A DNA stretch of 64,000 nt from an uncultured bacterium (GTDB lineage: Bacteria > JAJVIF01 > JAPKYR01), in the NCBI GenBank assembly GCA_965369865.1, contig CBDURU010000002.1:3838-67837 (forward strand), in the 5' to 3' direction. Within the stretch, counting starts at the first letter, position 1. Each line of letters begins with the position of its first letter. Below, piece by piece: positions 9,262-63,129 of the stretch. The translations under genes were made by a program, and so were the position numbers. The notes beneath the pieces are model-generated. The model worked only from the letters and a program-made list of their open reading frames with translations. It did not search any database and had not been told where the DNA came from.

Positions 9262-9343
9262 GTATTATATTATAAAATAGACATTATCAGGCAATTTATA
9301 CCATTTAGACCAATTCCGTTGAATAATTATTGATTCGAGATCG

Positions 9344-9383
9344 GGGACATCTCTTTTCGCCCGTCGAAAAGCAGGTGTCCCCC
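9344..9383. repeat. GGGGACA...TGTCCCC imperfect palindrome (repeat family 1 relative)
   Basis: ggggacatctcttttcgcccgtcgaaaagcaggtgtcccc, in the convergent intergenic region. Confidence 0.5.
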
Positions 9384-9495
9384 TTAATTCTAAATATATC
9401 CAATCAATTTTTATTTAACCGGATTGGTCTTAATAATTAGATTCCACGGAAATTTATTAATAATTTGTCAATAATAGTAAAGTGTTGGGCAATAT

Positions 9496-10662: not shown

Positions 10663-10755
10663 AACTGTTACTGGCCATCAGAAGAAGATAGAGAAATACT
10701 AACATAGAGAGATTGTAAACGGAAGAAAATGGCGGGTGTGGTTAATACAGGTTTT

Positions 10756-10883
10756 AGACGCTTTGAATTCATGGGGACGCTTTTCCATGCTTCCAGCGTT
10801 GAAAGTGTCCCCATGAATTCTTAGTTACACGGGACACCTTCAACGCTGGAAGCATGGAAAGGCGTCCCTGAATCTAAGATTGG
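10756..10883 (+). mobile_element. MITE-like nested-palindrome element, copy 1 (128 bp)
   Basis: agacgctttgaattcatggggacgc...ggcgtccctgaatctaagattgg. Two roughly 40-bp arms (ggggacgcttttccatgcttccagcgttgaaagtgtcccc and its reverse complement) separated by atgaattcttagttacac. Near-identical copies at 48051 and 62308. Confidence 0.8.
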
Positions 10884-10979
10884 TATAAGTATGTTGAAAG
10901 AGAGACTAAAATTTAAAGTTCCCCTCGTTTGGAGGGGAACTGTTGTGTGAATGTTTTGTTGCTTACTCCCCAGAATGTA

Positions 10980-17010: not shown

Positions 17011-17241
17011 TACGAAATAGAGAAAATTAATATAATATATCGTATAATCCAATTTTTATTTATTATTTTGTGCTATATAGTTGCATTTTTAGGTCTAATC
17101 ATTTATAATTCTTATGTACAAGGCAAAATACCCTCAAATGAGGATATTTTCAGTATATAGTTGTCAAGGGTTGACAAGGGTTATAAAAGGTTTTATATTT
17201 CTAAAGCGTCAGTTTGTAGTTGACGCAATCGATAATTAAAA

Positions 17242-17314
17242 TGCGCCTGCCGGGAGTCGAACCCGGAGCTAATTGTGAGCTAGACAATTGCTTTATCCGT
17301 TAAGCTACAGGCGC
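17242..17314 (-). tRNA. tRNA, anticodon loop CUAGCUC (anticodon AGC by position). Atypical
   Basis: Reverse complement folds as a cloverleaf: acceptor GCGCCUG/CAGGCGC, D-stem GCUU/AAGC, anticodon stem AUUGU/ACAAU, T-arm CCGGG-UUCGACU-CCCGG, 5-nt variable loop, A73. Confidence 0.75.
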
Positions 17315-17790
17315 ATGTTTATCTAAAACGCCTCTCGCCTATCAGCTTAGGGCGTTTGTATTCATTGATGATGGCTAGAATCGAACTCCAGCCACCACCA
17401 ATTAAGTTAACGACTCATATGAGTCACGTTGAAAGTCCGCTGGAGAGGCTCACGATAAGTGAACCCCTCCGTTTGACTGTCAATGTTCATTTAAATGCCC
17501 CTCATGATTTGATCGTCCGGGGGGTATTTCTTTCTGCATTCTAAGATACACGACACAAAAGGAAAAATCCACTTTTTTGTTTCAACAAAATTCAACACTT
17601 GATAGGCGGTTCAATTCGATCCGGTTCTGGGGGGATATCAATACCCGAATGAGTAATGAATTATTTGGCAATACTTATGGGTTTGTCAAGTGAATAGTTC
17701 CGATAAAATATTGATTCATATCAGGCACTCCCGTTACACTGGTCTCGGACCGCTCGCTGACGATCGCGGCTCCGATACGGTATTCCCTGG

Positions 17791-20910: not shown

Positions 20911-20934
20911 TCGGGTGGATTGTTGCCTGGCAGG

Positions 20935-21158
20935 CCACTCACTAACGTTCGTGGTACTGATGCGGTTCGTTCGGACTAAGGCCACTCCCTGACGGTCGCG
21001 GTACTGTGAATATTCACTCCCTGACGGTCGCGGCTCTGATACGGTTCGTGGTACTGTGAATGTCCACTCCCTGACGGTCGCGGCTCTGATACGGTTCGTG
21101 GTACTGTGAATGTCCACTTCCTGACGGTCGCGGCTCTGATGCGGTTCGTTCGGACTAA
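20935..21158. repeat. tandem array, about 5 copies of a 50-57-bp unit (repeat family 3)
   Basis: Unit cactccctgacggtcgcggctctgatacggttcgtggtactgtgaatgtc, with end units cactcactaacgttcgtggtactgatgcggttcgttcggactaa. Abuts the acs stop codon. Confidence 0.8.
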
Positions 21159-24404: not shown

Positions 24405-25841
24405 TTACCACTGACGACGGATTGTGTACTCCAGCATAGTTTCCCCATCCGACTCGACCGGGATGATAAATTCGACCGTGCTGGCGTCCTTCTGGAGATA
24501 TTCCATGTTTGAGCGGAGAACCTCCCAGTCACCCCAGACATGGTCCCAGTAAATTATTTCTACATTATCCGTTTTATGGTTGCGAATCGTGACCTCGACA
24601 TCATACTCCCAGGTGTCATAACGAATTTCTTTGCGGTCCATAACCACCCGCTCACCGACAATGTCGAACGCTTCGCCCATTAAAATTTCAATTTCCTCGT
24701 CTTTTGGAGTGTGGTCAACACGATCCTCCCCGATAAATTGAAGCGAGCCTGACGAATCCTCCTTGTAAACCCTGATCAGACCTGCCGGAATTGGAATTCC
24801 AAGCCCATTTTCTTCGGAGTTCATAAAATTGAGCCTGACTTCAATTTCAGCTTCAGCGGTATCGCCGGAGTAATAGTAAGCGTAGCCGGGATCGAAAATG
24901 AACAATTTCTCAACCCCGATCCCCTCCCCTTCAAGAAGGCTTATCTGTTTCTGCTGGTTATTGAGGACAGTCGCAAGTCGCTGGAGGGTGTAAAGGTGGT
25001 ATTCGAAGAACGATTCTTCGACGAAACCAAAATCATCCATGGCGCTATCCGTCATTTCAGACTTCAGGTACAATTCTCCGAGTGCATAATCATATTCAGG
25101 AATCCTGTGAACTTCCCCGGCAACGAGTTTCAGTTCAGCATCGTAGTAGGCGGTTCCGGAATTATTGTTGATTGTCACCCATCCTGAGAGATCGAGGACA
25201 TCATCGTTTTGCCCGACAATTGCCACATAATTCGCTTCCCAGCCAAGACCGTCGGTAAGGTAGCTCATTTCGCATTCCGCGATCATGTCGCGGCTGGAAA
25301 TCAGCGACCATCGCAAAGTCGGACGGGTGATAAGCCCTTCGGGGAGATCGTCGAACGTGACCTCGATGGGATTATTGATGATATTTATCCCCGACCTGGT
25401 CTGGATAACGAGGTTGCCGTCGTACGAAAGTAAAATCCCGTCGATTGTACGGCCGTCCTCGGTCCGAACCTCGATATGGTTATCGATGTGAGCTTCGTAA
25501 AGCGCCGCGGTCGATACGAGGTCATACTCGTAATTCTGCTCGAGGATGGTAAGTGAATCAGGGTCTGATTCATTTACAAAATGGACGCTGGTGGGGTCCA
25601 TCTGCGAAGCGACGTCCATAAAGATGAGATCAAATTCGGCACGCGGTAACTCGATTTCGCGGGTGTCTTTTACGAGGCCCGTCCCGTCGTTGTAGATCGT
25701 GACGGCCATAAATGTCTGATCCTCGAAAGTAGTTGTGACCTGCGGTCCGGCGATGATACTCCCTGGTACCAGGAACATGATTACGATCAGGACGATGAGT
25801 ACGGGTAGAGAAATTAATCCTATGGGTTTTATGTATTTCAT
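24405..25841 (-). CDS. DUF4139/DUF4140 (MuiA-like) secreted protein, copy 1
   Basis: Signal/TM N-terminus then MAVTIYNDGTGLVKDTR...SVHFV pattern. Roughly 70% identical to ORF 26072..27514. Confidence 0.5.
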   Translation of the reverse strand: MKYIKPIGLISLPVLIVLIVIMFLVPGSIIAGPQVTTTFEDQTFMAVTIYNDGTGLVKDTREIELPRAEFDLIFMDVASQMDPTSVHFVNESDPDSLTILEQNYEYDLVSTAALYEAHIDNHIEVRTEDGRTIDGILLSYDGNLVIQTRSGINIINNPIEVTFDDLPEGLITRPTLRWSLISSRDMIAECEMSYLTDGLGWEANYVAIVGQNDDVLDLSGWVTINNNSGTAYYDAELKLVAGEVHRIPEYDYALGELYLKSEMTDSAMDDFGFVEESFFEYHLYTLQRLATVLNNQQKQISLLEGEGIGVEKLFIFDPGYAYYYSGDTAEAEIEVRLNFMNSEENGLGIPIPAGLIRVYKEDSSGSLQFIGEDRVDHTPKDEEIEILMGEAFDIVGERVVMDRKEIRYDTWEYDVEVTIRNHKTDNVEIIYWDHVWGDWEVLRSNMEYLQKDASTVEFIIPVESDGETMLEYTIRRQW

Positions 25842-25870: not shown

Positions 25871-26056
25871 TGCCCCCCTGTAATCCCCCCGCAAGCGGGG
25901 GGATGGTTTTTTTACCTCCCCCCAACTTGGAGGGGATGGTGTTTTTACCTCCCCCCAACTTGGAGGGGATGGTTTTTTTACCTCCCCCCAACTTGGGGGG
26001 GATGGTTTTTTTACCTCCCCCCCACTTGGGGGGGATTGAGGGGGGGGTCGGTTTTT
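25871..26056. repeat. tandem array of 5 G/C hairpins each followed by a T-tract (terminator-like units on the + strand)
   Basis: ccccccgcaagcgggggg-atggttttttt, then 4x acctccccccaacttggaggggatggt(g)ttttt. Confidence 0.8.
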
Positions 26057-26071
26057 TCATATCCTCGACCA

Positions 26072-27514
26072 TTACCATTCTCTACGGATCGTGTATTCAA
26101 GGACAGTTTCGCCGTCGGATGCGACAGGAATGATAAACTCAACCGTGCTGGCGTCTTTCTGTTCATATTCATGCGTGCTTCGACGTACTTCCCAGTCGCC
26201 CCAGACATAGTCCCAGTACACGATTTCAACTCTTTCCTCTTTATGGTTCCTGATAGTCACTTCGACATCGTACTCCCAGGTGTCGTATCGGATTTCGCGC
26301 CGGTCCATAACTACCCGTTCGCCGACAATGTCGAATGCTTCACCTAACAGAATTTCGATTTCCTCGTCCTTGGGAGTGTGGTCGATTGCGTCTTCACCGA
26401 TGAATTGCAGCGAACCGGATGAATCTTCCTTGTAAACCCGCATTAATCCCTTTGGTAAAGGAATTCCAAGTCCGTTTGCTTCCGAATTCATGAATTGCAG
26501 CCTGACTTCGATATCAGCCTCCGCAGTGTCGCCGCGACCGTAATATGAGTAGCCCGGATCGAAAACGAAAATCTTATCGACAGTTATTCCTTCGCCTTCC
26601 AGGAGGCTGATCTGTTTCTGCTGGTTATTAAGGACTGTCGCGGGTCGCTGGAGGGTGTAAAGGTGATATTCGAAAAATGATTCTTCTTCAAATCCTCCCC
26701 CTGCACCGAGAGCAGCGTAACCATTCATGGCCATGGGTGCTGCCATTCTGGCGTATTCTGGCTGAACCCTGTTCACTTCACCCGCGACGAGTTTCAAAGT
26801 CGCATCGTTGTAAGCCGTACCGGAATTGTTGTTGATCGTTACCCAGCCAGTGAGATCGAGACGGTCATCGTTCTGATTAACAATCACCACATAATTCGCG
26901 CGCCAGCTAATCCCCGATGTCAGGTAGCTCATCTCGCATTCATGCGTACCCGAAGCGCCGTTTATAAGCGACCATTTCAATGTCGGACGGGTGATCAGGC
27001 CTTCGGGAAGCTCCTCGAACTGGATCTCGACCGGATTATTCACGATCACGATCCCATCGCGGGTTTGGATGACAAGGCTGCCGCCGGAGGATAGCAAAAT
27101 CCCGCTGACAGAGCGTCCATCCTCGGTCCGAATCTCGATTTCCTTGTCGATGTAACGCCTGAACAGGGCTTCGGTCGATACGAGATCGTATTCATAATTT
27201 TGTTCAAGGATCGTGATGGCGTCGGGATTTGTGTTCGACACGAAATGGACGCTGGTCGGGTCCATCGACGACGCGACATCCATGAAGACCAGGTTAATCT
27301 CGCCTTCAGGCAGGTTCAGATTTCTCGTGTCTTTCACAAGGCCTGTACCGTCGTTATAGATCGTGATAGCCATGTCCGACTGGTCATCGGATGTTGTCTC
27401 GACGATCGAGCCATCTGCAACCGCATGCGGAATAAATGTCACTAATGCAAGAATAAGCATCAGTGCTGGTATAGCGACTGTAAGTCGTGGGGTATTCATG
27501 AGGGGGTATTTCAT
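26072..27514 (-). CDS. DUF4139/DUF4140 (MuiA-like) secreted protein, copy 2
   Basis: Paralog of ORF 24405..25841. Start chosen at MKYPLMNTPRL, preceded by GGAGGA; a 15-bp direct repeat duplicates MKYPL. Confidence 0.5.
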   Translation of the reverse strand: MKYPLMNTPRLTVAIPALMLILALVTFIPHAVADGSIVETTSDDQSDMAITIYNDGTGLVKDTRNLNLPEGEINLVFMDVASSMDPTSVHFVSNTNPDAITILEQNYEYDLVSTEALFRRYIDKEIEIRTEDGRSVSGILLSSGGSLVIQTRDGIVIVNNPVEIQFEELPEGLITRPTLKWSLINGASGTHECEMSYLTSGISWRANYVVIVNQNDDRLDLTGWVTINNNSGTAYNDATLKLVAGEVNRVQPEYARMAAPMAMNGYAALGAGGGFEEESFFEYHLYTLQRPATVLNNQQKQISLLEGEGITVDKIFVFDPGYSYYGRGDTAEADIEVRLQFMNSEANGLGIPLPKGLMRVYKEDSSGSLQFIGEDAIDHTPKDEEIEILLGEAFDIVGERVVMDRREIRYDTWEYDVEVTIRNHKEERVEIVYWDYVWGDWEVRRSTHEYEQKDASTVEFIIPVASDGETVLEYTIRREW

Positions 27515-27648
27515 GAGGGGGTATCCTCCATTTTTATTTCGAAATAAGAACGCAGACTGCACAACGTGAAATAGGACACGTGAATTGTAACCGAGGGTTC
27601 AGAAATTTACTAACCGGAGAAGAAGATATCCGCAATAATTAACAACAT

Positions 27649-28625: not shown

Positions 28626-28867
28626 GATGGTCCTCTGCTACATTCTGCATTAAATCTCCGTATATTTAAAGACCACAGAGATTATCGGAAAGCTCAATAA
28701 TCTTGGAATCATTCGAACACCGGGGACAGGCACCCAGATTTGCCGGGTAGTTTGGAGTGGGAGTGGACGTATGTATTAGCGGCAAATCTGTGAGCCAGTC
28801 CCCTGAACGGAAATTAGATTCAAGGGGATTAGTGGACATGGTAGACCGCTCACTGGCGTTCGCGACT

Positions 28868-28975
28868 CTGATATACGGTTCTGATATACGGTTCTGATAT
28901 ACAGTTCTGATATACGGTTCTGATATACGGTTCTGATATACGGTTCTGATATACGGTTCTGATATGTGGTACTGG
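28868..28975. repeat. tandem 15-bp repeat, about 7 copies
   Basis: (ggttctgatatacgg)n, with one variant cagttctgatatacgg. Confidence 0.85.
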
Positions 28976-29049
28976 TATAAGACTGGTGGCCCCTCATAAC
29001 CAGCCCCGTGCTGGTTAGGAGGGTCCTGCAATCCATCTACATGCTCCAA

Positions 29050-29129
29050 ACAGTACCGCGAACGTTAGTGAGTGGTCTGCCAAATCCACTTATCTACCAT
29101 CCAGACCACTCACTAACGTTCGCGGTACT
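29050..29129. repeat. 29-bp perfect inverted repeat
   Basis: cagtaccgcgaacgttagtgagtggtctg ... cagaccactcactaacgttcgcggtactg, with a 22-bp spacer. Core shared with the 20935 array. Confidence 0.85.
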
Positions 29130-29161
29130 GATACAGACACGCACTCACATCGGGACTTCAC

Positions 29162-33079: not shown

Positions 33080-34216
33080 TTGCCAGCAATCATAAAAAAA
33101 ACTTACAATACCGGCATGATTCAGATCAAAATCCGGCAGAATGCAGTCTATTGCTTAATCGCCATCCTAATTTATTTTTTATTAATCCCGTATCCGACCA
33201 GGGCGACAACTCTCTCCGAAGTTCTTGTGGGGATCTACAACGCCCGAAATCCAGCGAGCCTATCTTCGCTTTCGTTTCTTGGCGACATGCGTCTCGATCT
33301 TGACGATGAACAGGGCGCGATGCTTCCGGCCCAGATCAGCCTGCTTGCCGCGTGGCGAAGCCCCGATGAATGGTACAGCACTTACGAAATTTCAGGTGAG
33401 ATCGCTACCGGGATGAGGGGAATCGGTTACTCGCATCCGGCTGTTGACCAGATGATTCTAAGCCGTCCGGACTTTCTCGATGTCCTTGATATAGTCTGGA
33501 CAGTGCAGTACCAGGGTACAGCGATGTGGGACGGGGAACCCGCCTGGAAAATTCTTTTTAACACGCGTGACATAACGCTCGATACACCGCCGTTTACGCT
33601 TTATGTCCGGAAGGATGATTTTGTCCCCCTGAGGACACAAGTAGAATTTTCAGACGGCACCACCGCGATCACCGACCTGAACTGGATCGTGACCGACGAT
33701 GTTTTGCTGCCCTCGAAATTTACGACAACTTTTAACCCGCCGATCGGCCCTTTAGCGGGATATGAAACAACCTGGTTCAATCATGAGATCAATCCTGATT
33801 TATCGGACATTGATTTTCCGCGCGAGGAAGGGTCTTTACTAAGCGGCAACGATCCCGATCTGGACGATGGCCCGGCGGTTTTCGAGGAGCTTTACCACGG
33901 CTTCGCGGATGATCCGATTATCGCGCCGATCAACGATTCGTCCGGAACATATGACCGGTTAAGTTTTACATTCAGCCTGTATGTCGAGGACGATTCAATT
34001 CCCGGCCAGTTGGATTCAAGGCAGATAGCTATCCGGAATCTCGCGATCGATATAATTTCTGACTGGGATTGGTCGGGTGATAACGGATTGAGCATGCCCG
34101 GCGGGAAATACGAGTGCGGAAAGGAAATAGTCGGTGCGATCGGAGAACTCCTCGGAACCGACTCGATAACGGATTTTTATTTCCTCGACTGGGAACCTAT
34201 TGAATCGGGGGAGTGA
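33080..34216 (+). CDS. membrane-anchored hypothetical protein (third gene of MoxR operon)
   Basis: N-terminal TM, acidic C-terminus. Confidence 0.45.
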   Translation: MPAIIKKTYNTGMIQIKIRQNAVYCLIAILIYFLLIPYPTRATTLSEVLVGIYNARNPASLSSLSFLGDMRLDLDDEQGAMLPAQISLLAAWRSPDEWYSTYEISGEIATGMRGIGYSHPAVDQMILSRPDFLDVLDIVWTVQYQGTAMWDGEPAWKILFNTRDITLDTPPFTLYVRKDDFVPLRTQVEFSDGTTAITDLNWIVTDDVLLPSKFTTTFNPPIGPLAGYETTWFNHEINPDLSDIDFPREEGSLLSGNDPDLDDGPAVFEELYHGFADDPIIAPINDSSGTYDRLSFTFSLYVEDDSIPGQLDSRQIAIRNLAIDIISDWDWSGDNGLSMPGGKYECGKEIVGAIGELLGTDSITDFYFLDWEPIESGE

Positions 34217-34423
34217 CTCCAATAATTCAAAAATTATTAATCCGTGTGGCCGGATTTTTCATTTCAGCAACCCATTTCGATGGCAAGGATCTGGTAAAGA
34301 CCGCGGGATGTCGAATCGTCGGGTGGCATGATCTAGATTTGCGGATTGGGGATATGGTAGCAGATTATTGAATAAGAGATAATATTTTTTATCGATGCTC
34401 TTTAAGCCTAAGTCACCTTGTTT

Positions 34424-36457
34424 TTACAACCTTTTATTAATTTCATCAATTAAGCTTTTTGCATTGTGCTCACTAACTCCATTGTATTCTGAGATATCAG
34501 TTTGGGAATCAATATCTACTGTTATTTGTTTAATAATTTCTTTTTTATTCAGTTCCTTACCAAGCATCGCAAAGAACCGTTTATTTTTTGCAACTATACT
34601 ATCATCTCCCTTAAGTTCAGCTTCATATTGCTCGAATTCATAACCAGCGACCTTCATCTCCTGTTCATGAACCTTGTACACATACTTATTATAATATCCT
34701 TCTTGAAATATACTTTCTAGTTCTGGCTTATCATCATCAGTTTCAATGATTGACTCTATGCTAATAACTGATAACAGTTGCGAATTAATTTTTTCTTCTA
34801 GCTCATTATTTAATTTTTCTTTCGCTTCAATTCCCGCATTATCTGAATCAATCAAGACAACTACATTTAATTTTTGACCCAGCATGAATAAACACAATTT
34901 GAAAATATTACCAGTTCCACATGCGGGTGTGATAAATATATCACTAAGCAACCCAGGTTTTCCTGATTTTAATAATAGGTTTGACAAAGCATTTAGGATC
35001 CAGAAATCCTCTATACCTTCAACGATTAGGTTTTTCTGAGAAACAAGAAAGCTTTGACTTGCATTCATACCCAACGCAGCCTGTAAAACAAAATTCCTAT
35101 TGCTTTCCTCTGAAATTAGTTTATCTGTGGTTTTTGATCCTTCTTTAGTCATTTCAACGACTTTAATGTTTAGTGGATCCTTTAAATCCACCATAAATGG
35201 CGAGTGCGTTGAGATTATCATTTGGTTTTTCTCTGATTGCGTCTTTAAATATTCAAGTAAGTCCCCTTGCCAGTCTGGATGCAAATGCAAGCCTGGTTCA
35301 TCGAGTAGCATGAAATAGTTGTTGCCTAAATATTTTTGCCCATGAATTAGCAAAAGAAATGAAATTAAATTTTGTGTACCAAAGGACATTTCTGACAAAT
35401 TTGTATTGGTTTCGTAAAAAGGAGAGTCCTTATTGACACTGGTTAAATCAAAATCTATATTATCCCCATCAGCTATTAGATTCACATTATGCTGTATATC
35501 AAATCCACCGCGATCCATCAATGATTGTATGACTTTTGATATTTTTCCATACTCTAACCTTCTTCGGCGACGATGTTTAAATTTTATGATTTCTGATGGG
35601 TCCTTATTTGCAATACTCGCTATAGGTTGTAAAATTGGTTGCCTCTTTGATTTTATTTGAAATCGTTCATCTGGATCCTGCTTTGTTTCATCACCATCCT
35701 TTGCCAAGTTCCCACTGCCTGCGTACAGAGGGATATCAACCATGTAAATAATTCTTGGCAATAAATCGTATATAAAATTATGAAATGGTTGAGGTAAGGA
35801 TTTAATATCACCAATTTGTTTTGCATAGGCATTCATTGTAGTAATTATGCTTGTAAAGTACATATCCGCTTCCGCACTACCTTCATTCATCCTCAGGAAT
35901 TGTGCCCGCTGTCCATTAAACTTACTAAGGGTAGTATTAAATAATTGTATTCTTATATCACAACCAAGCCTAATCACTGTGTCTATAAGACCTATAGTTG
36001 AATCATCAAAATTAAAATCATTAAATCCTTTAGATAATGGTGTTTCTAGCGACAATGGCGTTATATCTGGGGAGTTAATATCTATATCCTTATCAATATC
36101 GTCAGTTACTGCATGAATTGTTAAAAAACCATCATTATTACGAATCACCAAAACTTCATTCAAAGGATTAGAAATATTGCCTAATTTTATTACTTCTTCT
36201 AGCTCCTCATCACTCAATTTAAATATAGCAGAAACTTTAGGTTTTAGATCATCTTCGAGCCGGCTAGTCCTTGTATAAGAATGCTCTGGAAAATAGGTTG
36301 GGATTGTTAATGATGGGTTTAACATACATAATGCTTCAAGGTGGGCTGACTTCCCACTTTGATTAGGACCAACGAAAACAGTGAAATTTCTGATATCAAC
36401 CCATCCAGAATCTATTATACATTTGTAATTCTGAATTCTGAATTTCTTCAATTTCAT
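34424..36457 (-). CDS. OLD-family ATP-dependent endonuclease (ABC-ATPase + TOPRIM), class 1
   Basis: FRIQNYKCI start. Walker A GPNQSGKS, Walker B LLDEPGLHLHP, H-loop ISTHSPFMVD. C-terminal TOPRIM NLIVEGIEDF ... VVLIDSDNAG. Gene is about 30% GC against about 50% in flanks. Confidence 0.7.
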   Translation of the reverse strand: MKLKKFRIQNYKCIIDSGWVDIRNFTVFVGPNQSGKSAHLEALCMLNPSLTIPTYFPEHSYTRTSRLEDDLKPKVSAIFKLSDEELEEVIKLGNISNPLNEVLVIRNNDGFLTIHAVTDDIDKDIDINSPDITPLSLETPLSKGFNDFNFDDSTIGLIDTVIRLGCDIRIQLFNTTLSKFNGQRAQFLRMNEGSAEADMYFTSIITTMNAYAKQIGDIKSLPQPFHNFIYDLLPRIIYMVDIPLYAGSGNLAKDGDETKQDPDERFQIKSKRQPILQPIASIANKDPSEIIKFKHRRRRRLEYGKISKVIQSLMDRGGFDIQHNVNLIADGDNIDFDLTSVNKDSPFYETNTNLSEMSFGTQNLISFLLLIHGQKYLGNNYFMLLDEPGLHLHPDWQGDLLEYLKTQSEKNQMIISTHSPFMVDLKDPLNIKVVEMTKEGSKTTDKLISEESNRNFVLQAALGMNASQSFLVSQKNLIVEGIEDFWILNALSNLLLKSGKPGLLSDIFITPACGTGNIFKLCLFMLGQKLNVVVLIDSDNAGIEAKEKLNNELEEKINSQLLSVISIESIIETDDDKPELESIFQEGYYNKYVYKVHEQEMKVAGYEFEQYEAELKGDDSIVAKNKRFFAMLGKELNKKEIIKQITVDIDSQTDISEYNGVSEHNAKSLIDEINKRL

Positions 36458-36580
36458 TTTGCGACCACCTCAAGTTTTATTATTAATTCAACCCATAGGA
36501 TGATGAGTTCCAATCGTACTAACGAATCTATAATTTAACAGATCTTCAGGACAGAATTTAGTATATCTTCTAGGTATGCC

Positions 36581-45535: not shown

Positions 45536-45661
45536 GGGGACACCAGATTTGGTGTCCCCATAAAAAACCGGCCAAAACCAGGGACACCAGACTTGGTGTC
45601 CCCATATAATACCAGGGACACCAATAGTTACAATACCGGGGACACCAAGTCTGGTGTCCCC
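45536..45661. promoter_or_regulatory. three copies of a 24-bp perfect palindrome GGGGACACCA-N-TGGTGTCCCC in a divergent promoter region
   Basis: Copies at 45536..45559, 45581..45603 and 45638..45661, plus a half-site at 45615. Lies between the UDG (-) and ABC ATPase (+) starts. No flanking T-run on the appropriate side, so they are not terminators. Confidence 0.6.
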
Positions 45662-47988: not shown

Positions 47989-48050
47989 GAAATAAAATTT
48001 AAATTGAAATCCAACCGCTGGAAGGAGTCGGCATGTATTTATTTTAGTCC

Positions 48051-48224
48051 AGACGCTTTGAATTCATGGGGACGCTTTTCCATGCTTCCAGCATTGAAAG
48101 TGTCCCCATGAATTCTTAGTAACACGGGACACCTTCAACTCTGGAAGAGTGGAAAGGCGTCCCTGAATCTAAGATTGGGGCGTCACTGAATATAAGATTG
48201 GGGCGTCACTGAATCTAAGATTGG
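48051..48224 (+). mobile_element. MITE-like nested-palindrome element, copy 2 (extended by two 23-bp tandem tail units)
   Basis: Same sequence as 10756..10883 with a few substitutions. 3' tail ggcgtccctgaatctaagattgg is triplicated. Confidence 0.8.
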
Positions 48225-48226
48225 TC

Positions 48227-49183
48227 TTATTCCAGTCCGGCGGCGTTTGACATCTCCGGTTTATAATATCCCTGGCGCCGTACTTTCGCGAACGCGTTAA
48301 TTCCGAAATATGAAGTAATCAGGCACGACCAGTAGATGATTAATATCCCGATAGCGGCAGTTGAAATGTAGATGATAAATTCTTCCCTGAAATTAAGCCC
48401 ATAACTCCTGAAAACTGACCAAGTCATATATTCATGATACATTGACATCGCTACACCGCTGATTATCGCTAAAATAAGTGCGTGCAGGAGAGTGGCCATG
48501 ATAGCTCCGAAGATATTGTGAGTAATCGCGTATGCCCCTGAAACAAGCGATATCACAAGCATCATGAGGACCAGGGCAAGGATCATATAAATCAGAGTAA
48601 TGATTGTGATGCCGATTATCGGAAGCATCTGCTCGATCTCAAATGTCGGTACCCATAACATGCCGACAAGCCAAAGAGAAAGGAACAGTGGTAATGCTAA
48701 TCCGATGAACAGGTAAAGCAATGACTGGATCACCTCTAATCCCCGCACGAAATTTGGGAGTGTCTCCGCGAAAAATAGGCTACCGTCTGAAAGGGGGGTT
48801 GTAAGGATTGAGCTTAGATTATCCTTCCCGATATCCTGCTGGACTTCCCGCGGGGTGGTGACAAGGCAGAAAATGAACATCCGGAAAAACGTAATGCCGT
48901 ACAAAATTACCAATGGCGATGCAATAAGTAAGCAGGCTGCGATTGATGCGAGTTCATCATGATCGTAAGCGGTTACAATCAGCATAATTACAGAGATGAT
49001 AGCCGACCAGATCAACCCGGCCCTGAACGCAAGTTTTGGATTTATTAAATTTTTTACCCGACTGTTACGGTAATTTCTCTGGAATACGGGATTGAACCAT
49101 AAGCGCTTCAGGAACGGGATTCTGGCGATCCAGAACGGGATGTTTTTAACGGTAGAAAGGCCGAATTCATTGATCGGATCCAT
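48227..49183 (-). CDS. polytopic membrane protein (possible ABC-2-like permease), paralog A
   Basis: About 6 TMs. N-terminal FQRNYR motif and C-terminal NAAGL shared with ORF 49274..50239. Confidence 0.45.
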   Translation of the reverse strand: MDPINEFGLSTVKNIPFWIARIPFLKRLWFNPVFQRNYRNSRVKNLINPKLAFRAGLIWSAIISVIMLIVTAYDHDELASIAACLLIASPLVILYGITFFRMFIFCLVTTPREVQQDIGKDNLSSILTTPLSDGSLFFAETLPNFVRGLEVIQSLLYLFIGLALPLFLSLWLVGMLWVPTFEIEQMLPIIGITIITLIYMILALVLMMLVISLVSGAYAITHNIFGAIMATLLHALILAIISGVAMSMYHEYMTWSVFRSYGLNFREEFIIYISTAAIGILIIYWSCLITSYFGINAFAKVRRQGYYKPEMSNAAGLE

Positions 49184-50239: not shown

Positions 50240-50274
50240 AGCGGTTGTTTATTTTCCCTGCACATTATAAGGAA

Positions 50275-53007
50275 TCAGGGAACAGGATGCTGATATTCTT
50301 CCAACATCAATACTATTTCATCGTAACCCGATTCCACCGCAATCGTGTATGCCGTCTCCCCATCATCATTTGCTGATTCAGGGTCGCAACCGGCATCAAG
50401 AAGCAATTCAACAACCCTTACCGGATTTCGATTATCGACTTCTTCCATGTCGCCTGAGTATTCTCTTGGGTAGTAAAATTCCGCAAGGAAATCTTCGTAT
50501 CTCATGACTGCGCACATAAGGGCAGTATCCCCATAGTCACTTGTTTTCGATACATCAGCACCACTCTCTATTAGTAACTTCACAATTTCCGGATTCCCAA
50601 TCCCCGATGCAAACATCAGGGGAGTGTGGCTGTTGATATAATACGTTTCAAGGTTGGCTCCGGCAATAACGAGCGTCCTCACCAAATTTAAGTTATTTCC
50701 CCTGACAGCGAACATCAATGCGGACCAGTATCCACGGTTTCTATAACCGGGCTTATCGGGAAGAGAGTAGCCGGTTTCCCTTTCGAAGCTCGGGTCGGCG
50801 CCTGCTTCCAGCAGAATATTGACAATCTCCACATAACCGCCGTTCGCAGCACGCAAAACCGGTGTGTCGCCGTATTGTGAAATAATCATGTTTGGATCGG
50901 CACCATTCTCTAGTAGATCGGTTACTTTTCCACTATCACCCCTATGAATAGCACTGTTGAGAAGAATATAAGCCATTTCATCGTCAATCAGCATATCGTG
51001 GGATTGCAGGAGTTCAATGATTTCTGAATTACCTCTGCCTGCTGCGATCATATAGGTTGAACCGCCGACATTCGGATCGGCACCATGTTCGAGCAGTGAC
51101 CTGACCAGTTCCACATTGGTGTTTTCAATTGCATACCAGAGTGCTGTCGGACCCTCCAGCATGGACGCTTCATCGTACATGGTGGCTTTTGTGTCGGTTT
51201 CACAGCCCGCTTCCTGCAGGAGTTCCGCAACTTCATTCTGCTGCCCGAAACCCTTGTCGCTGCATTCAATCATCTGGGCCATCTGTCCGTAATTTCCGTG
51301 AGTGAAAATATCTCTGAATTCATGGAATCTGACCGCCGTTAAAATCAGGGCTGTGTAACCTGTCTCTCCCTGAAATGATATATCTGCACCTCCATTAATT
51401 AACACCCTGGCAGTATCAACCTTACCAAGTCCGGCAGCCATCATCAGAGCAGTAAGCCCGTTCGGATCCTGGAAATCCGGATCGGCTCCGGCGTTCAGGA
51501 GGTCGGTAACCAGTTTAGCGGTCCCGATTCTTGATGCGAGCATCAATGGTGTATCTGTTGAAGCGCCCCGGACATTCGGGTCAACTTCTGCATCCAGGAG
51601 CACTCTCACAATTTCTTCTTCCGGGGATAAATCGTCTGATTGACTGGGACTCGGGAGAAAACCATGAATAATCGCTGCCAGGAGTGGAGTATACGGCCAG
51701 ATTTCGGATTCCGAACCGGGATCTGCGCCAAGCTCCAAGAGCCTGTCCATCATCACAGGCTGGCGAGTGTTGATCGATACCATCAGGCACTGTTCAAGCC
51801 ATGGGTCATCTGTGTTTATACCATACTCGATCAACAATTCCATCATAACAATATTGCCTGAATAAACCGTTGAAACGACAGGATGATACAAATCACCGCC
51901 TTCATGAAACTCGAAATCTATCTCGCCGCCTGCTTCTAATAGTAATTCAAGAATTTCATGGTAATGTCTACCGGTATGTGAATCGGAAATCCTTAAATCC
52001 TCCTGGGGAGAATTTCCGTACCGAATCGCTTCACAGATTCTGTTGTCATATTCGATGCATCGACGGAACACAGAATTGCCGTTGTTAGGGTTTGCACCTC
52101 TTTCAAGCAGAAGCTCTACAATATCGACGCGCTGGTTATAAACAGCCCAATAGAGAAGCGATGATTCTCCATCATAAAGGAAATCGATTTCCGAACCGGC
52201 TTCAAGGAGAATTTTTATGGCATCCAACTGTGCTTCAAAATCAGAGTCACCTTCATAAGCATTACCCAACAGAATAGCCATCGAGTCGACATCTTCACGA
52301 TTGGAGTAAAAAAATGGCCTGGATTCAGGCATATCCAGCCTTCCGGCTCCTGTGCATAAATAATATAAAGACTGCCTACCTTTGAAATCCCTGTGTTCCG
52401 GATCGTCAATTGCGGACATTAACCGATCCACCACATCTGAATGGCCATTGAGAGCTGCAATCATCATCGCCGATAGGTAGTAATCATTAAATCCGGACGG
52501 ATCAGCACCAAACTCGAGGAGGTTATCAAGCATATGAAGATCACCGGTCTCGCTGGCAATCTGCACCGGGGTTACACTGTTAATTCCTTCTGTATCCGGG
52601 TCAGCGCCAGCGGTCAGCAGAACCAGTGCGATTTCATCGTACCCATGTGATACAGCTTCGGAAATTGCGGGAAAATCATATCCATTGGGAATGAAATCGG
52701 GATTGGCTCTCTGATCCAGAAGCGATTGCACCCGATTCAGATCATTATCGATGACAGCGTCAATCAATTGATTAGTTAGGGACCGGTCGAATGGGCCCGA
52801 ATCTTCGATAAAAATACCGGTTGGTTCAACGCCTTGATTGCCCGGGCCACCGCTTAATTTATGGGGATAATCAGATTGCTGGTCTGCAGCGTGAATTTCA
52901 TCTTCGTAACCTGTTGCACAGCCGATGCTATTTAACAAAGCGACAATTACCAGGAATAACAATGTAATTAAGATGAAATTTCTCGCGCATTTCCACTTTA
53001 TGCACAT
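50275..53007 (-). CDS. giant ankyrin-repeat lipoprotein (910 aa)
   Basis: Lipobox LLNSIGC. More than 20 ankyrin repeats (G-TPLM-A---G----V--LL--GADPN pattern repeated throughout). Confidence 0.75.
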   Translation of the reverse strand: MCIKWKCARNFILITLLFLVIVALLNSIGCATGYEDEIHAADQQSDYPHKLSGGPGNQGVEPTGIFIEDSGPFDRSLTNQLIDAVIDNDLNRVQSLLDQRANPDFIPNGYDFPAISEAVSHGYDEIALVLLTAGADPDTEGINSVTPVQIASETGDLHMLDNLLEFGADPSGFNDYYLSAMMIAALNGHSDVVDRLMSAIDDPEHRDFKGRQSLYYLCTGAGRLDMPESRPFFYSNREDVDSMAILLGNAYEGDSDFEAQLDAIKILLEAGSEIDFLYDGESSLLYWAVYNQRVDIVELLLERGANPNNGNSVFRRCIEYDNRICEAIRYGNSPQEDLRISDSHTGRHYHEILELLLEAGGEIDFEFHEGGDLYHPVVSTVYSGNIVMMELLIEYGINTDDPWLEQCLMVSINTRQPVMMDRLLELGADPGSESEIWPYTPLLAAIIHGFLPSPSQSDDLSPEEEIVRVLLDAEVDPNVRGASTDTPLMLASRIGTAKLVTDLLNAGADPDFQDPNGLTALMMAAGLGKVDTARVLINGGADISFQGETGYTALILTAVRFHEFRDIFTHGNYGQMAQMIECSDKGFGQQNEVAELLQEAGCETDTKATMYDEASMLEGPTALWYAIENTNVELVRSLLEHGADPNVGGSTYMIAAGRGNSEIIELLQSHDMLIDDEMAYILLNSAIHRGDSGKVTDLLENGADPNMIISQYGDTPVLRAANGGYVEIVNILLEAGADPSFERETGYSLPDKPGYRNRGYWSALMFAVRGNNLNLVRTLVIAGANLETYYINSHTPLMFASGIGNPEIVKLLIESGADVSKTSDYGDTALMCAVMRYEDFLAEFYYPREYSGDMEEVDNRNPVRVVELLLDAGCDPESANDDGETAYTIAVESGYDEIVLMLEEYQHPVP

Positions 53008-53211
53008 TGTCTACTCCCTGTTGAAATTGATTAGAATAATTATACACGAGATTTGAGTATGGAAAATTTAGTAAGAGTTCATATACCATCAAGTTTAAAA
53101 TTCCAGGTCCTTTTTATACCTCTGAAAAGAGAGTATAATATGTAAGGTTACGAATGGGAACGTAACCGATTAGTAATTTGCATACCGTTTTTTCAGAAAC
53201 GGAGTTCTGAA

Positions 53212-55203: not shown

Positions 55204-55463
55204 TTGCCTTATCCTTCCATCTTTTACCGCGAAATTTCCTGTTGGGAGAGGGAAGAACGGAAATTAACGCAGCATTTACGCTCACAATATTATCATTATG
55301 ATTGGATGGATTGTTCTTTAAGTAAGTATATACAAAATAATTTTTTGCATGCAAAATTCAGCTGAAGATTTAGTTCATATCCAGAGTTTCCAGGGTCGCT
55401 TTAAGCCATACAGGCCGATCTAAGCCTTTATTTGTACTTTTAGATGTCACCGGTCGACCGGAT

Positions 55464-62132: not shown

Positions 62133-62307
62133 TATTCCACTCGTGTCGCGTATGTGACGAGAGTATAAATGACCAATCACTCGCGATCTCGAACGAGCTG
62201 GAGGTCATTACGGCGGAGTTATCAGTCCATACAAATTTACCCCCCCGGTTACAAAAGTCCGGGGTGTTTGAGGTTTTAGCGGAGTAAACACGTAAAAAAT
62301 TCTAATA

Positions 62308-62435
62308 CCAATCTTAGATTCAGGGACGCCATTCCATGCTTCCAGCGTTGAAGGTGTCCCGTGTAACTAAGAATTCATGGGGACACTTTCAACGCTGGAA
62401 GCATGGAAAAGCGTCCCCATGAATTCAAAGCGTCT
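62308..62435 (-). mobile_element. MITE-like nested-palindrome element, copy 3 (reverse orientation)
   Basis: Reverse complement of the 10756..10883 element. Ends 1 nt before the chosen pth ATG. Confidence 0.8.
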
Positions 62436-62436
62436 G

Positions 62437-63129
62437 ATGCAAGAGCCATTATCAAATATTGAACCGGAGAAAATCGACAGGATCATTGTCGGACTTGGAA
62501 ACCCCGGCCAGGAATACCATGGGACACGCCATAATCTGGGCTATCGTGCCCTGGACGAATTTCTTCGTACGCTCGAAATTAAAAGGGACTTCAAAGCGGG
62601 GAGGAAATCAAGGACCCAGCGCATCGAGGTTGGCGGGAGTAATGTTCTTCTCGTGCGTCCAACAACATTTATGAACCGTTCCGGCGACGCGTTAAAACCA
62701 CTTCTGCAAAATTATGAACTTGAAGTATCCGATGTGCTCGTAGTTCACGACGATATGGATATCTCCTGCGGTAAAGCAAAAATGAGACAGGGTGGCGGTG
62801 CTGCCGGGCACAAGGGAATAATCGACATATCCGAAAAATGCGGAGCAGGTTTCACGCGGATTAAGATCGGGATCGGCGTACCGGAAGCTCGCGATAATGA
62901 TTCAGATATTGACTGGGTCCTCGGAAAGCCAACAAAAGAAGAATGGGAGTCGCTCGAATCGGTGATGCCGGGAGTCGCGGAAGCCATGCGGATATGGATC
63001 GTGGACGGCACCGTTAAGGCAATGACCTGGCTCAATACTGTTATGAACGCGGAAGGTAAGGAAGAAAATACAGATAAGGAAAATGATGTGCCCGATTCAG
63101 TAAACGAATCAGAGTCTGATGAGCGGTAA
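62437..63129 (+). CDS. pth: peptidyl-tRNA hydrolase
   Basis: IIVGLGNPGQEYHGTRHNLGY. Conserved rplY-pth-mfd order. The start could instead be 62419 inside the repeat element. Confidence 0.85.
   Translation: MQEPLSNIEPEKIDRIIVGLGNPGQEYHGTRHNLGYRALDEFLRTLEIKRDFKAGRKSRTQRIEVGGSNVLLVRPTTFMNRSGDALKPLLQNYELEVSDVLVVHDDMDISCGKAKMRQGGGAAGHKGIIDISEKCGAGFTRIKIGIGVPEARDNDSDIDWVLGKPTKEEWESLESVMPGVAEAMRIWIVDGTVKAMTWLNTVMNAEGKEENTDKENDVPDSVNESESDER

Follow-up and report, generated by a model that had tools for sequence, protein, structure and literature searches.

ERIC/IRU elements of the Enterobacteriaceae are 127-bp imperfect palindromes that insert at TA, and Correia/NEMIS elements of Neisseria are small, have 26-bp terminal inverted repeats, duplicate a TA target and often lie directly upstream of genes. 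For the target duplications of the IS5 family and of Harbinger-type elements, the consensus is TNA. Within the IS5 family, the IS1031 group is described as sharing a 3-nt insertion site (PMC2516522). A transcribed ERIC hairpin can alter the fate of an mRNA by unmasking an RNase E site, and Correia/NEMIS hairpins in mRNA are cut by RNase III in Neisseria, where the expression of the neighboring gene can change (PMC10969869). The same source covers the general properties of MITEs (miniature inverted-repeat transposable elements). Here, we describe a palindromic repeat that occurs three times in a 64,000-nucleotide stretch of contig CBDURU010000002.1 (the window) from an uncultured bacterium. One of the three copies lies at the start codon of pth, the gene for peptidyl-tRNA hydrolase. 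The repeat is very probably a lineage-specific, non-autonomous DNA transposon, a MITE, which would be mobilized in trans by a DDE transposase and would leave the native start codon of pth in use. At 129-185 nt in the window, and with no transposase gene, the copies fall within the size range of MITEs (about 50-1000 bp).

A repeat search returned the intervals 10756-10883, 48051-48178 and, in inverted orientation, 62296-62435, with 95-97% identity. An initial annotation of this DNA had listed three copies more than 90% identical, which agrees with the search, and had not noticed the inverted orientation of copy 3 (pair I1, 140 nt, 97% complementary). The 21-nt core of the arms described below is found six times in the window, two per copy, and a 23-nt tail is found five times, each against 0.00 expected. 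The limits of the three A-type elements were set with empty sites in related contigs as the reference. Copy 1 (10746-10885, plus strand, 140 nt) runs from TACAGGTTTTAGACGC... at its left end to ...CTGAATCTAAGATTGGTA at its right end, with a left limit inferred from a TAA/TAA match and from the terminus TACAGG, which is common to a copy on a related contig, L005. Copy 2 (48042-48226, plus strand, 185 nt) includes three tandem right-end units of 23 nt at 48156-48178, 48179-48201 and 48202-48224 (TRF score 124 for 48156-48224), as the earlier description of a triplicated 23-bp tail had it. Copy 3 (62306-62434, minus strand, 129 nt) reads TACCAATCTTAG...GAATTCAAAGCGTC on the plus strand.

Every copy contains two arms of 38 nt, which are 92-95% complementary and 19 nt apart. 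In copy 1, the left arm is an imperfect palindrome at 10774-10811 and the right arm lies at 10831-10868 (both on the plus strand; inverted pair I3, 95% complementary). Each arm had been described as bounded by GGGGAC...GTCCCC; this is true of the left arm, but the right arm is clamped by GGGAC...GTCCC alone. Two imperfect terminal inverted repeats of ~60 nt, each holding a GGGAC...GTCCC mini-palindrome, flank the 19-nt center, which makes a single long hairpin of the entire element. On the right, the boundary is sharp (...GCGTCCCTGAATCTAAGATTGGT[A/C]). The left end repeats the right one in inverted, degenerate form, TACAGGTTTTAG(TCCAG)ACGC..., and it is unequally preserved among the three copies. 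A full-length copy on contig L002 has a full inverted left end, AACCAAATTTAGATTCAGGAACAC, that matches the right end at 17 of 20 positions. In the window copies the match is about 16 of 24 by manual alignment, with copy 3 cut short.

The insertion of copy 2 was examined against L012, a related contig that holds the empty site. The spacer measures 50 nt in L012 and 238 nt in the window; the extra 188 nt are the 185 nt of the element plus 3 nt. The empty junction reads GTGTAA-TTA-TTCCAGTCC, and the filled one reads ATGTAT-TTA-TTTTAGTCCAGACGC...GATTGGTC-TTA-TTCCAGTCC, with the element between the two TTA triplets (alignment A3). In the alignment with the empty allele, the target duplications are TTA at 48039-48041 on the left and TTA at 48227-48229 on the right. 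Read on the minus strand, the right triplet is the TAA stop codon of a gene for a 318-aa protein (48227-49183). A 12-nt imperfect duplication at this copy (TTATTYYAGTCC) was considered and given up in favor of TTA/TTA with a longer left end, since copy 1, at another locus, has the same TTTTAG...ACGC segment.

At the pth site, seven contigs are empty (L006, L007, L009 and L014-L017) and two are filled, the window and L008. The spacer between the L25 gene and pth has 172 nt in the empty contigs and 304 nt in the window, where the additional 132 nt are 129 plus 3. Empty alleles read ...ACACGTAAAAAAACC-TGA-TGCCAGAG in L006, L007 and L014-L017 (CC-TGA-TGCC) and ...TCA-TAA-TGCC in L009. The filled window allele reads ...AAAATTC-TAA-TACCAATCTTAG...AAAGCGTC-TGA-TGCAAGAG. 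L008 begins inside the element, and its right junction is ...GCATC-TAA-TGCC. The upstream (left) target duplication of copy 3 is TAA at 62303-62305. The right one, at 62435-62437, is TGA in the window (TAA in L008) and ends on the base that is also the A of the pth start codon. These filled and empty alleles confirm the initial annotation in placing an insertion exactly at the start of pth. It had also let the copy end one nucleotide before the ATG; the shared sequence does stop at 62435, but the element itself ends at 62434, and it is the duplicated TGA that gives the A of the ATG. A 6-bp duplication, TCTAAT, was ruled out at this copy, as TCT is element sequence common to copies 1 and 2.

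Copy 1 is missing from the orthologous spacer of L013 (189 nt vs 317 nt), a contig too diverged to give an exact junction. Its flanking TAA triplets, at 10743-10745 and 10886-10888, were read from the sequence as partners, with the left limit inferred. Target-site duplications, a point raised in the initial annotation, are of a 3-bp TNA type that was checked against empty sites at copies 2 and 3. Across the family, the triplet next to the right end ...CTGAATCTAAGATTGGT[A/C] (...GATTGGT[A/C]) is TAA, TTA, TTA, TGA, TTA and TAA in six of seven copies. Other A-type flanks are TGA/TGA at the full-length L002 copy and TAA/TAA at a hybrid copy on L005. TAA, TTA or TGA is present on both sides in eight of nine elements.

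An arm-pattern scan of one GTDB genome per species matched four contigs, all of them from the Planctomycetota metagenome-assembled genome (MAG) CSMAG_1386 (GCA_030673355.1). A fifth match, L004, was a chance match in coding DNA. Shared genes are 92-96% identical between the window and contigs of Logan ERR10503156, ERR10503158 and ERR10503112, JGI 3300040952 and CSMAG_1386, and therefore these contigs are strains of one species-level lineage. Among them, L014 is a CSMAG_1386 contig, L007 is the JGI contig and L008 comes from run ERR10503158. A neighboring protein is 100% identical on ENA scaffold ZORZ22-1_SAMN30647028_METAG-scaffold_56, an SRR21487742 Logan contig and a 117-kb NCBI contig. The host is an uncultured marine Planctomycetota lineage. 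The family is dispersed in this lineage, with three copies in the window, four loci in CSMAG_1386 and one in L008. CSMAG_1386 holds the A-type family at these four loci, yet its own pth site (L014) is empty, which argues for mobility within the lineage. The inverted ends, the 3-bp duplications, the exact empty sites and the copies in an independent MAG all bear out the term MITE-like, which the initial annotation had used. Searches in other collections added no members. The arm pattern had 0 matches in viral contigs, and the 20 matches of the 17-mer tail there were all chance matches in which the GTCCC context is missing. A BLAST search of a plasmid collection gave no match. The tail pattern and the end of a sister family had 0 matches in metagenome contigs, a result that is uninformative since the second pattern sits exactly on the JGI contig L007.

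The sister family, MITE-B, is also present in the window. This element is 122 nt long (9308-9429, plus strand), reads GACCAATTCC...CGGATTGGTC with a GGGGAC-clamped hairpin at 9343-9382, lies between convergent genes and is flanked by TTA at 9305-9307 and at 9430-9432. Another MITE-B, of 281 nt, is found in L007 (3519-3799), where the window (~56100) and L006 are empty; the flanks are TAA/TAA, and the terminal G...C belongs to the element. This filled allele with its two empty counterparts proves that the sister family is mobile. The full-length L002 copy of the A-type is interrupted by a 208-nt MITE-B with ends GACCAATCC...GGATTGGTC and flanks TTA/TTA. Without this nested insertion, the element reads GAATTCTTAGTTACAC, which was taken as the empty site. 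A 5-bp duplication with ends ACCAAT...ATTGGT suited two cases on L002 and was ruled out by the comparison of filled L007 with the empty window. There, the target GTAAA is seen as GTAAG...CTAAA, and therefore the ends are GACCAAT...ATTGGTC with a 3-bp TAA duplication.

A- and B-type elements have in common the terminus ACCAATC, a sub-terminal TTAGAWT box and a GGGGAC-clamped hairpin with a (C/T)TGAATTCTWAG-like box after it. Hybrids on L005 and L003 join an A-type right half to B- or C-type hairpins. GGGGAC...GTCCCC-clamped hairpins with interiors of 24, 40, 74 and 82 nt are scattered in the lineage. To judge by these shared parts, the A-, B- and C-type elements and the hybrids are one modular MITE superfamily. 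The C-type element is present in L006 and L007 at a locus where the window has a short remnant. At this locus (~55404-55420 in the window, 3018-3119 in L006 and 2751-2831 in L007), the sister contigs carry a 74-nt GGGGAC-clamped hairpin. L006 reads TAA|GACCAATGCTCC...TGTGAT|TAA there, and the window reads TAAGCC-ATACAGGCCGATC-TAAGCC, which looks like a footprint or the remnant of an internal deletion.

As RNA, the element folds into one hairpin of roughly 55 bp, at -79.2 kcal/mol for copy 1 and -78.3 kcal/mol for copy 3 (z = -11.7; no shuffle was as low). The DNA fold of copy 1 reaches -46.9 kcal/mol. The single open reading frame (ORF) in the element is a 48-codon read-through of the palindrome. 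In a search of the whole window with Rfam 15, a tRNA alone passes the gathering score. For copy 1, the best matches below threshold are to models of eukaryotic miRNA precursors (44.5 bits, with a gathering score of 96) and reflect a generic long hairpin. The copies are similar to each other: the 127-nt cores of copies 1 and 3 differ at 1 position and those of copies 2 and 1 at 5 (range across copies, 1-6). Four of the five substitutions in copy 2 lie in the arms, and all four break pairs, which takes the arm mismatches from 2 to 6 with 0 compensatory changes. Read from these cores, the substitution pattern is that of a recently active selfish element and not of a conserved structured RNA.

Under the MITE reading, the transposase gene would lie elsewhere in the genome, and its product would cut the ends and place the element into TNA targets, mostly TAA or TTA, doubling 3 bp. 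A candidate is a DDE transposase that makes 3-bp duplications, such as one of the IS5 family (IS1031-like) or a PIF/Harbinger-like enzyme, acting in trans. Insertion of copy 2 doubled the stop codon of the neighboring gene. Copy 3 entered a T(A/G)A whose final base is the A of the pth ATG, and doubling of this triplet rebuilt the start codon. Since TNA includes the stop codons TAA and TGA and can share sequence with an ATG, copies can lie flush with a gene and leave it undamaged. Pfam searches found no transposase domain in 40 ORFs of the window, in agreement with the earlier remark that none lies nearby, or in 17 ORFs around the CSMAG_1386 copies. The precomputed Pfam annotation of the homologous contigs contains no transposase either.

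Among described systems, the closest in shape and size is ERIC, and the closest in the 3-bp TNA duplication are derivatives of the IS5 family (IS1031-like) or of Harbinger-type elements. Like ERIC, the repeat described here is 127-140 nt long, is wholly one long imperfect palindrome, lies between genes, varies in presence among strains and has no known cognate transposase. However, the two have no sequence similarity, the host here belongs to the Planctomycetota, and the element has a 3-bp TNA duplication and a tandem 23-nt end unit of variable number. MITEs of the IS5/IS1031-like or PIF/Harbinger ("Tourist-like") kind are alike in the 3-bp TNA/TWA duplication, and ends that start with GA are present in MITE-B and at the right end of copy 2. 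In contrast, most A-type ends start with TAC rather than GA or GG, and inverted repeats of ~60 nt with an internal palindrome are unusually long for such elements. No insertion sequence with matching ends was found. Correia elements are likewise small, bounded by terminal inverted repeats, prone to lie just ahead of genes and able to form hairpins in mRNA. They differ in carrying documented promoters and an IHF site, whereas a promoter scan of copy 3, its surroundings and the empty allele found no sigma-70-like promoter. They also differ in the 26-bp length of their repeats and in their target duplication.

A tandem duplication of a 19-nt end unit (GCTTTGAWTTCATGGGGAC) is present at positions 1-45 of L008, at the pth-proximal end, and parallels the 23-nt triplication at the opposite end of copy 2. 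In this family, units at the element ends appear liable to amplify in tandem. BrickBuilt of Porphyromonas gingivalis is likewise a MITE with a tandem 23-nt repeat of variable copy number (PMC4596501), whose counterparts here are the one or three tail units and the duplicated unit of L008. In BrickBuilt, up to ~23 units form a minisatellite inside the element, whereas the unit here belongs to the terminal inverted repeat, and the sequences are unrelated. Two other sources of small palindromic elements were ruled out. Tn3-derived TIMEs have terminal 38-bp GGGG repeats and a 5-bp duplication; here, the arms are internal, with 17-31 nt conserved outside them, and the empty site given by L007 and the window contradicts a 5-bp duplication. 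Palindromic elements derived from IS200/IS605 lack inverted ends and target duplications and insert 3' of a fixed tetra- or pentanucleotide, and both inverted ends and duplications are present here.

The copy at pth could be read in another way, as an element that was co-opted by the gene. In this case, initiation at the ATG at 62377 or some other rewiring would give Pth a 20-residue N-terminal extension or a new ribosome-binding site, as the initial annotation had suggested. The in-frame ATG that it had pointed to does exist, and the ORF from 62377 to 63129 is open into pth. The NCBI and ENA calls start there as well (P0152, 250 aa), whereas the remaining proteins of its 90% cluster have 230 aa. 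The element-encoded extension MGTLSTLEAWKSVPMNSKRL (62377-62436, plus strand, 20 codons), which is part of the public gene calls, is most likely untranslated. From its conserved start codon, pth spans 62437-63129 on the plus strand and encodes 230 aa, with PF01195 homologues. In an alignment of 13 sequences, the methionine at 62437 (M21 of the long ORF) is invariant and is followed by the conserved EPLSNIE.EKIDRIIVGLGNPG region; the 12 homologues with the conserved start include relatives of only 41-61% identity. The full 20-residue extension is present in 0 relatives, and the call on the truncated contig L008 (P0003) has the last 6 element-encoded residues. The public Pth call is 20 residues too long because its start was taken inside the element. 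The same peptide ORF exists on the minus strand of copy 1, without a gene downstream, and therefore the extension is a by-product of the palindrome. Judged from sequence comparison, the alternative start of pth is an annotation artefact rather than biology.

The ATG at 62377 is placed at the tip of a hairpin stem of -78 kcal/mol, and no Shine-Dalgarno motif (GGAG, GAGG or AGGA) lies upstream of it or of the ATG at 62437. SD-like motifs precede 19 of the 46 window ORFs, against a background of 11%, and therefore the genome does use such motifs. The empty alleles of pth have no Shine-Dalgarno motif either, and the native leader is A-rich. Since there is none with or without the element, the insertion neither removes nor adds a ribosome-binding site. 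What copy 3 does is to shift the A-rich leader 132 nt upstream and away from the AUG, so that the hairpin now stops 8 nt before it. This displacement can be counted in favor of co-option, as can codon 2 of pth (62440-62442), which is CAA (Gln) only in the window allele and CCA (Pro) in close relatives, filled L008 included. Against this, the native ATG is intact and most strains are element-free at the site. Taken together, co-option through a new start or ribosome-binding site is quite improbable. Under the MITE reading, the native start would still be used, and the hairpin could lower or modulate translation or mRNA processing. By analogy to ERIC and Correia, such an effect of a hairpin so close to the AUG is plausible. 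Further upstream, a conserved CCCCGG-N10-CCGGGG hairpin with a T-rich run lies downstream of L25 (62243-62264, plus strand) in filled and empty alleles and may be the L25 terminator. The terminator scan missed it because its loop exceeds 8 nt.

The initial annotation had also pointed to RAYT/IS200-like tnpA_REP genes. By this route, inverted palindromic pairs of the REP/REPIN type would be copied via single-stranded DNA by a RAYT, an IS200/IS605-like tyrosine (HUH) transposase. REP, BIME and REPIN elements do resemble the repeat in that inverted palindromic units pair into one larger hairpin. The clamped hairpins with their several interiors recall the multiple REP families of one genome, and no DDE transposase was found in the window or the related loci. 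HUH/Y1 transposition of the IS200/IS605 kind makes no target duplications or terminal inverted repeats, whereas both were verified here against empty sites, and the route is disfavored because of them. A REP unit is a 20-40-bp palindrome with a stem of 8-9 bp, next to which, at one end, a GTAG or CGTC tag stays unpaired (PMC3733652); the units here are much longer (38-40 nt), have paired GGGGAC/GTCCCC clamps and lack the tag. No Y1_Tnp-like ORF was present among 57 scanned ORFs, and a search of the 64-kb window and of ~29 kb of CSMAG_1386 loci found no RAYT gene flanked by the repeats. An origin as a REP/REPIN-type repeat is thus very unlikely. Assembly or binning artefact, such as a chimeric join or adapter-like sequence, had been named as a possible refutation. 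Contigs do often stop inside the element (L001, L008 and L011), as is expected of short-read assemblers at dispersed repeats. However, an ENA scaffold and a Logan assembly (L010, L011) carry copy 2 in identical form, the 250-aa pth ORF made by copy 3 is found on three contigs in NCBI and ENA, and related copies exist in a MAG of another project (CSMAG_1386) and in run ERR10503158 (L008). With the exact junctions and target duplications, these copies effectively refute an artefact.

Several observations weigh against a MITE with defined ends and a 3-bp duplication. The window copies are alike only from GACGC inward, with 11, 10 and 0 nt upstream of it in copies 1, 2 and 3. These upstream parts read TAA|TACAGGTTTTA in copy 1 and TTA|TTTTAGTCCA in copy 2, and nothing precedes GACGC in copy 3 (TCA|, or TTA| in L008). 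The left limits of copy 1 and of the L005 copy were picked partly for a matching TNA. The left ~30 nt of copy 2 (48042-48071) resemble the opposite coding flank (48230-48259) at 20 of 29 positions with one gap. This likeness could be due to chance, to a preference for end-like targets or to a longer imperfect duplication, and we treated it as chance. The triplets that flank copy 3 are unequal (TAA vs TGA), at a position that is polymorphic among strains, and the L001 copy has its TAA one base nearer the end. About 10 family members were examined. An autonomous partner with matching ends was not found in the sequences that were reached, and the transposase family is therefore a guess. The left ends are the weakest part of the anatomy. 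We read the three forms as unequal truncations of one degenerate left repeat. The junction of copy 3 and L008, GGCA-TTA-GAYGC, is that expected from a deletion between the two TTA repeats of TTA|TACAGGTTTTAGACGC. Loss of an end in situ is seen in the superfamily, as L007 is without 26 nt of an end that L006 keeps at the same locus.

The window contains other repeats and islands. Between divergent genes for a UDG-family protein and an ABC-transporter ATPase, 45536-45661 holds three 24-nt GGGGACACCAGATTTGGTGTCCCC hairpins. They are kept in the sister strain (L012, 9337-9426) and are therefore not polymorphic like the MITEs. A 2.9-kb segment at 50241-53125 carries a 910-aa ankyrin-repeat ORF (50275-53007). 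It is found in the window and in L010/L011; in the sister strain (L006/L012) it is missing, and the genes on either side adjoin each other. At 34000-36500, GC content is low (36% vs about 47%), and an AAA_15/AAA_21 ATPase of 677 aa (34424-36457), which has a weak match to an OLD-like TOPRIM, looks like an acquired defense-type gene. Four to five tandem 33-nt units at 25884-26048, each a terminator-like CCCCCC...GGGGGG hairpin with a T-run, separate two diverged DUF4139-like paralogues (24405-25841 and 26072-27562; 72-78% DNA identity). Tandem repeats of 50 nt lie within 20928-21158 (20992-21149), and 7.6 units of the 13-nt TCTGATATACGGT lie within 28854-29150 (28867-28965). A 32-nt inverted pair (20928-20959 and 29051-29082, 94%) brackets a block of ~8 kb with acs, a PAS-domain gene and the DUF4139 paralogues. 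Finally, the tRNA called as tRNA-Ala(AGC) at 17241-17315 on the minus strand has an atypical anticodon loop, CUAGCUC (A34, U37), and an acceptor pair G3:C70 that is not the alanine identity G3:U70. This assignment looks doubtful.

A further step can be proposed for the pth locus. Targeting of TNA would let the superfamily sit on stop codons (copy 2) and start codons (copy 3) without breaking them, and the pth copy might be a segregating regulatory allele, whose hairpin throttles or conditions Pth or makes an RNase III site in some strains. We consider this a speculative and rather unlikely extension of the MITE reading. In any case, the filled and empty pth alleles are a natural comparison for the effect of a strong 5' hairpin on an essential gene without a Shine-Dalgarno motif. 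The finding leaves the general understanding of such elements unchanged. For this lineage, it describes an active MITE family, previously undescribed, and a GGGGAC-clamped, ACCAAT-ended superfamily with strain-level insertion polymorphism, and it illustrates that a TNA-duplicating element can occupy start and stop codons harmlessly.

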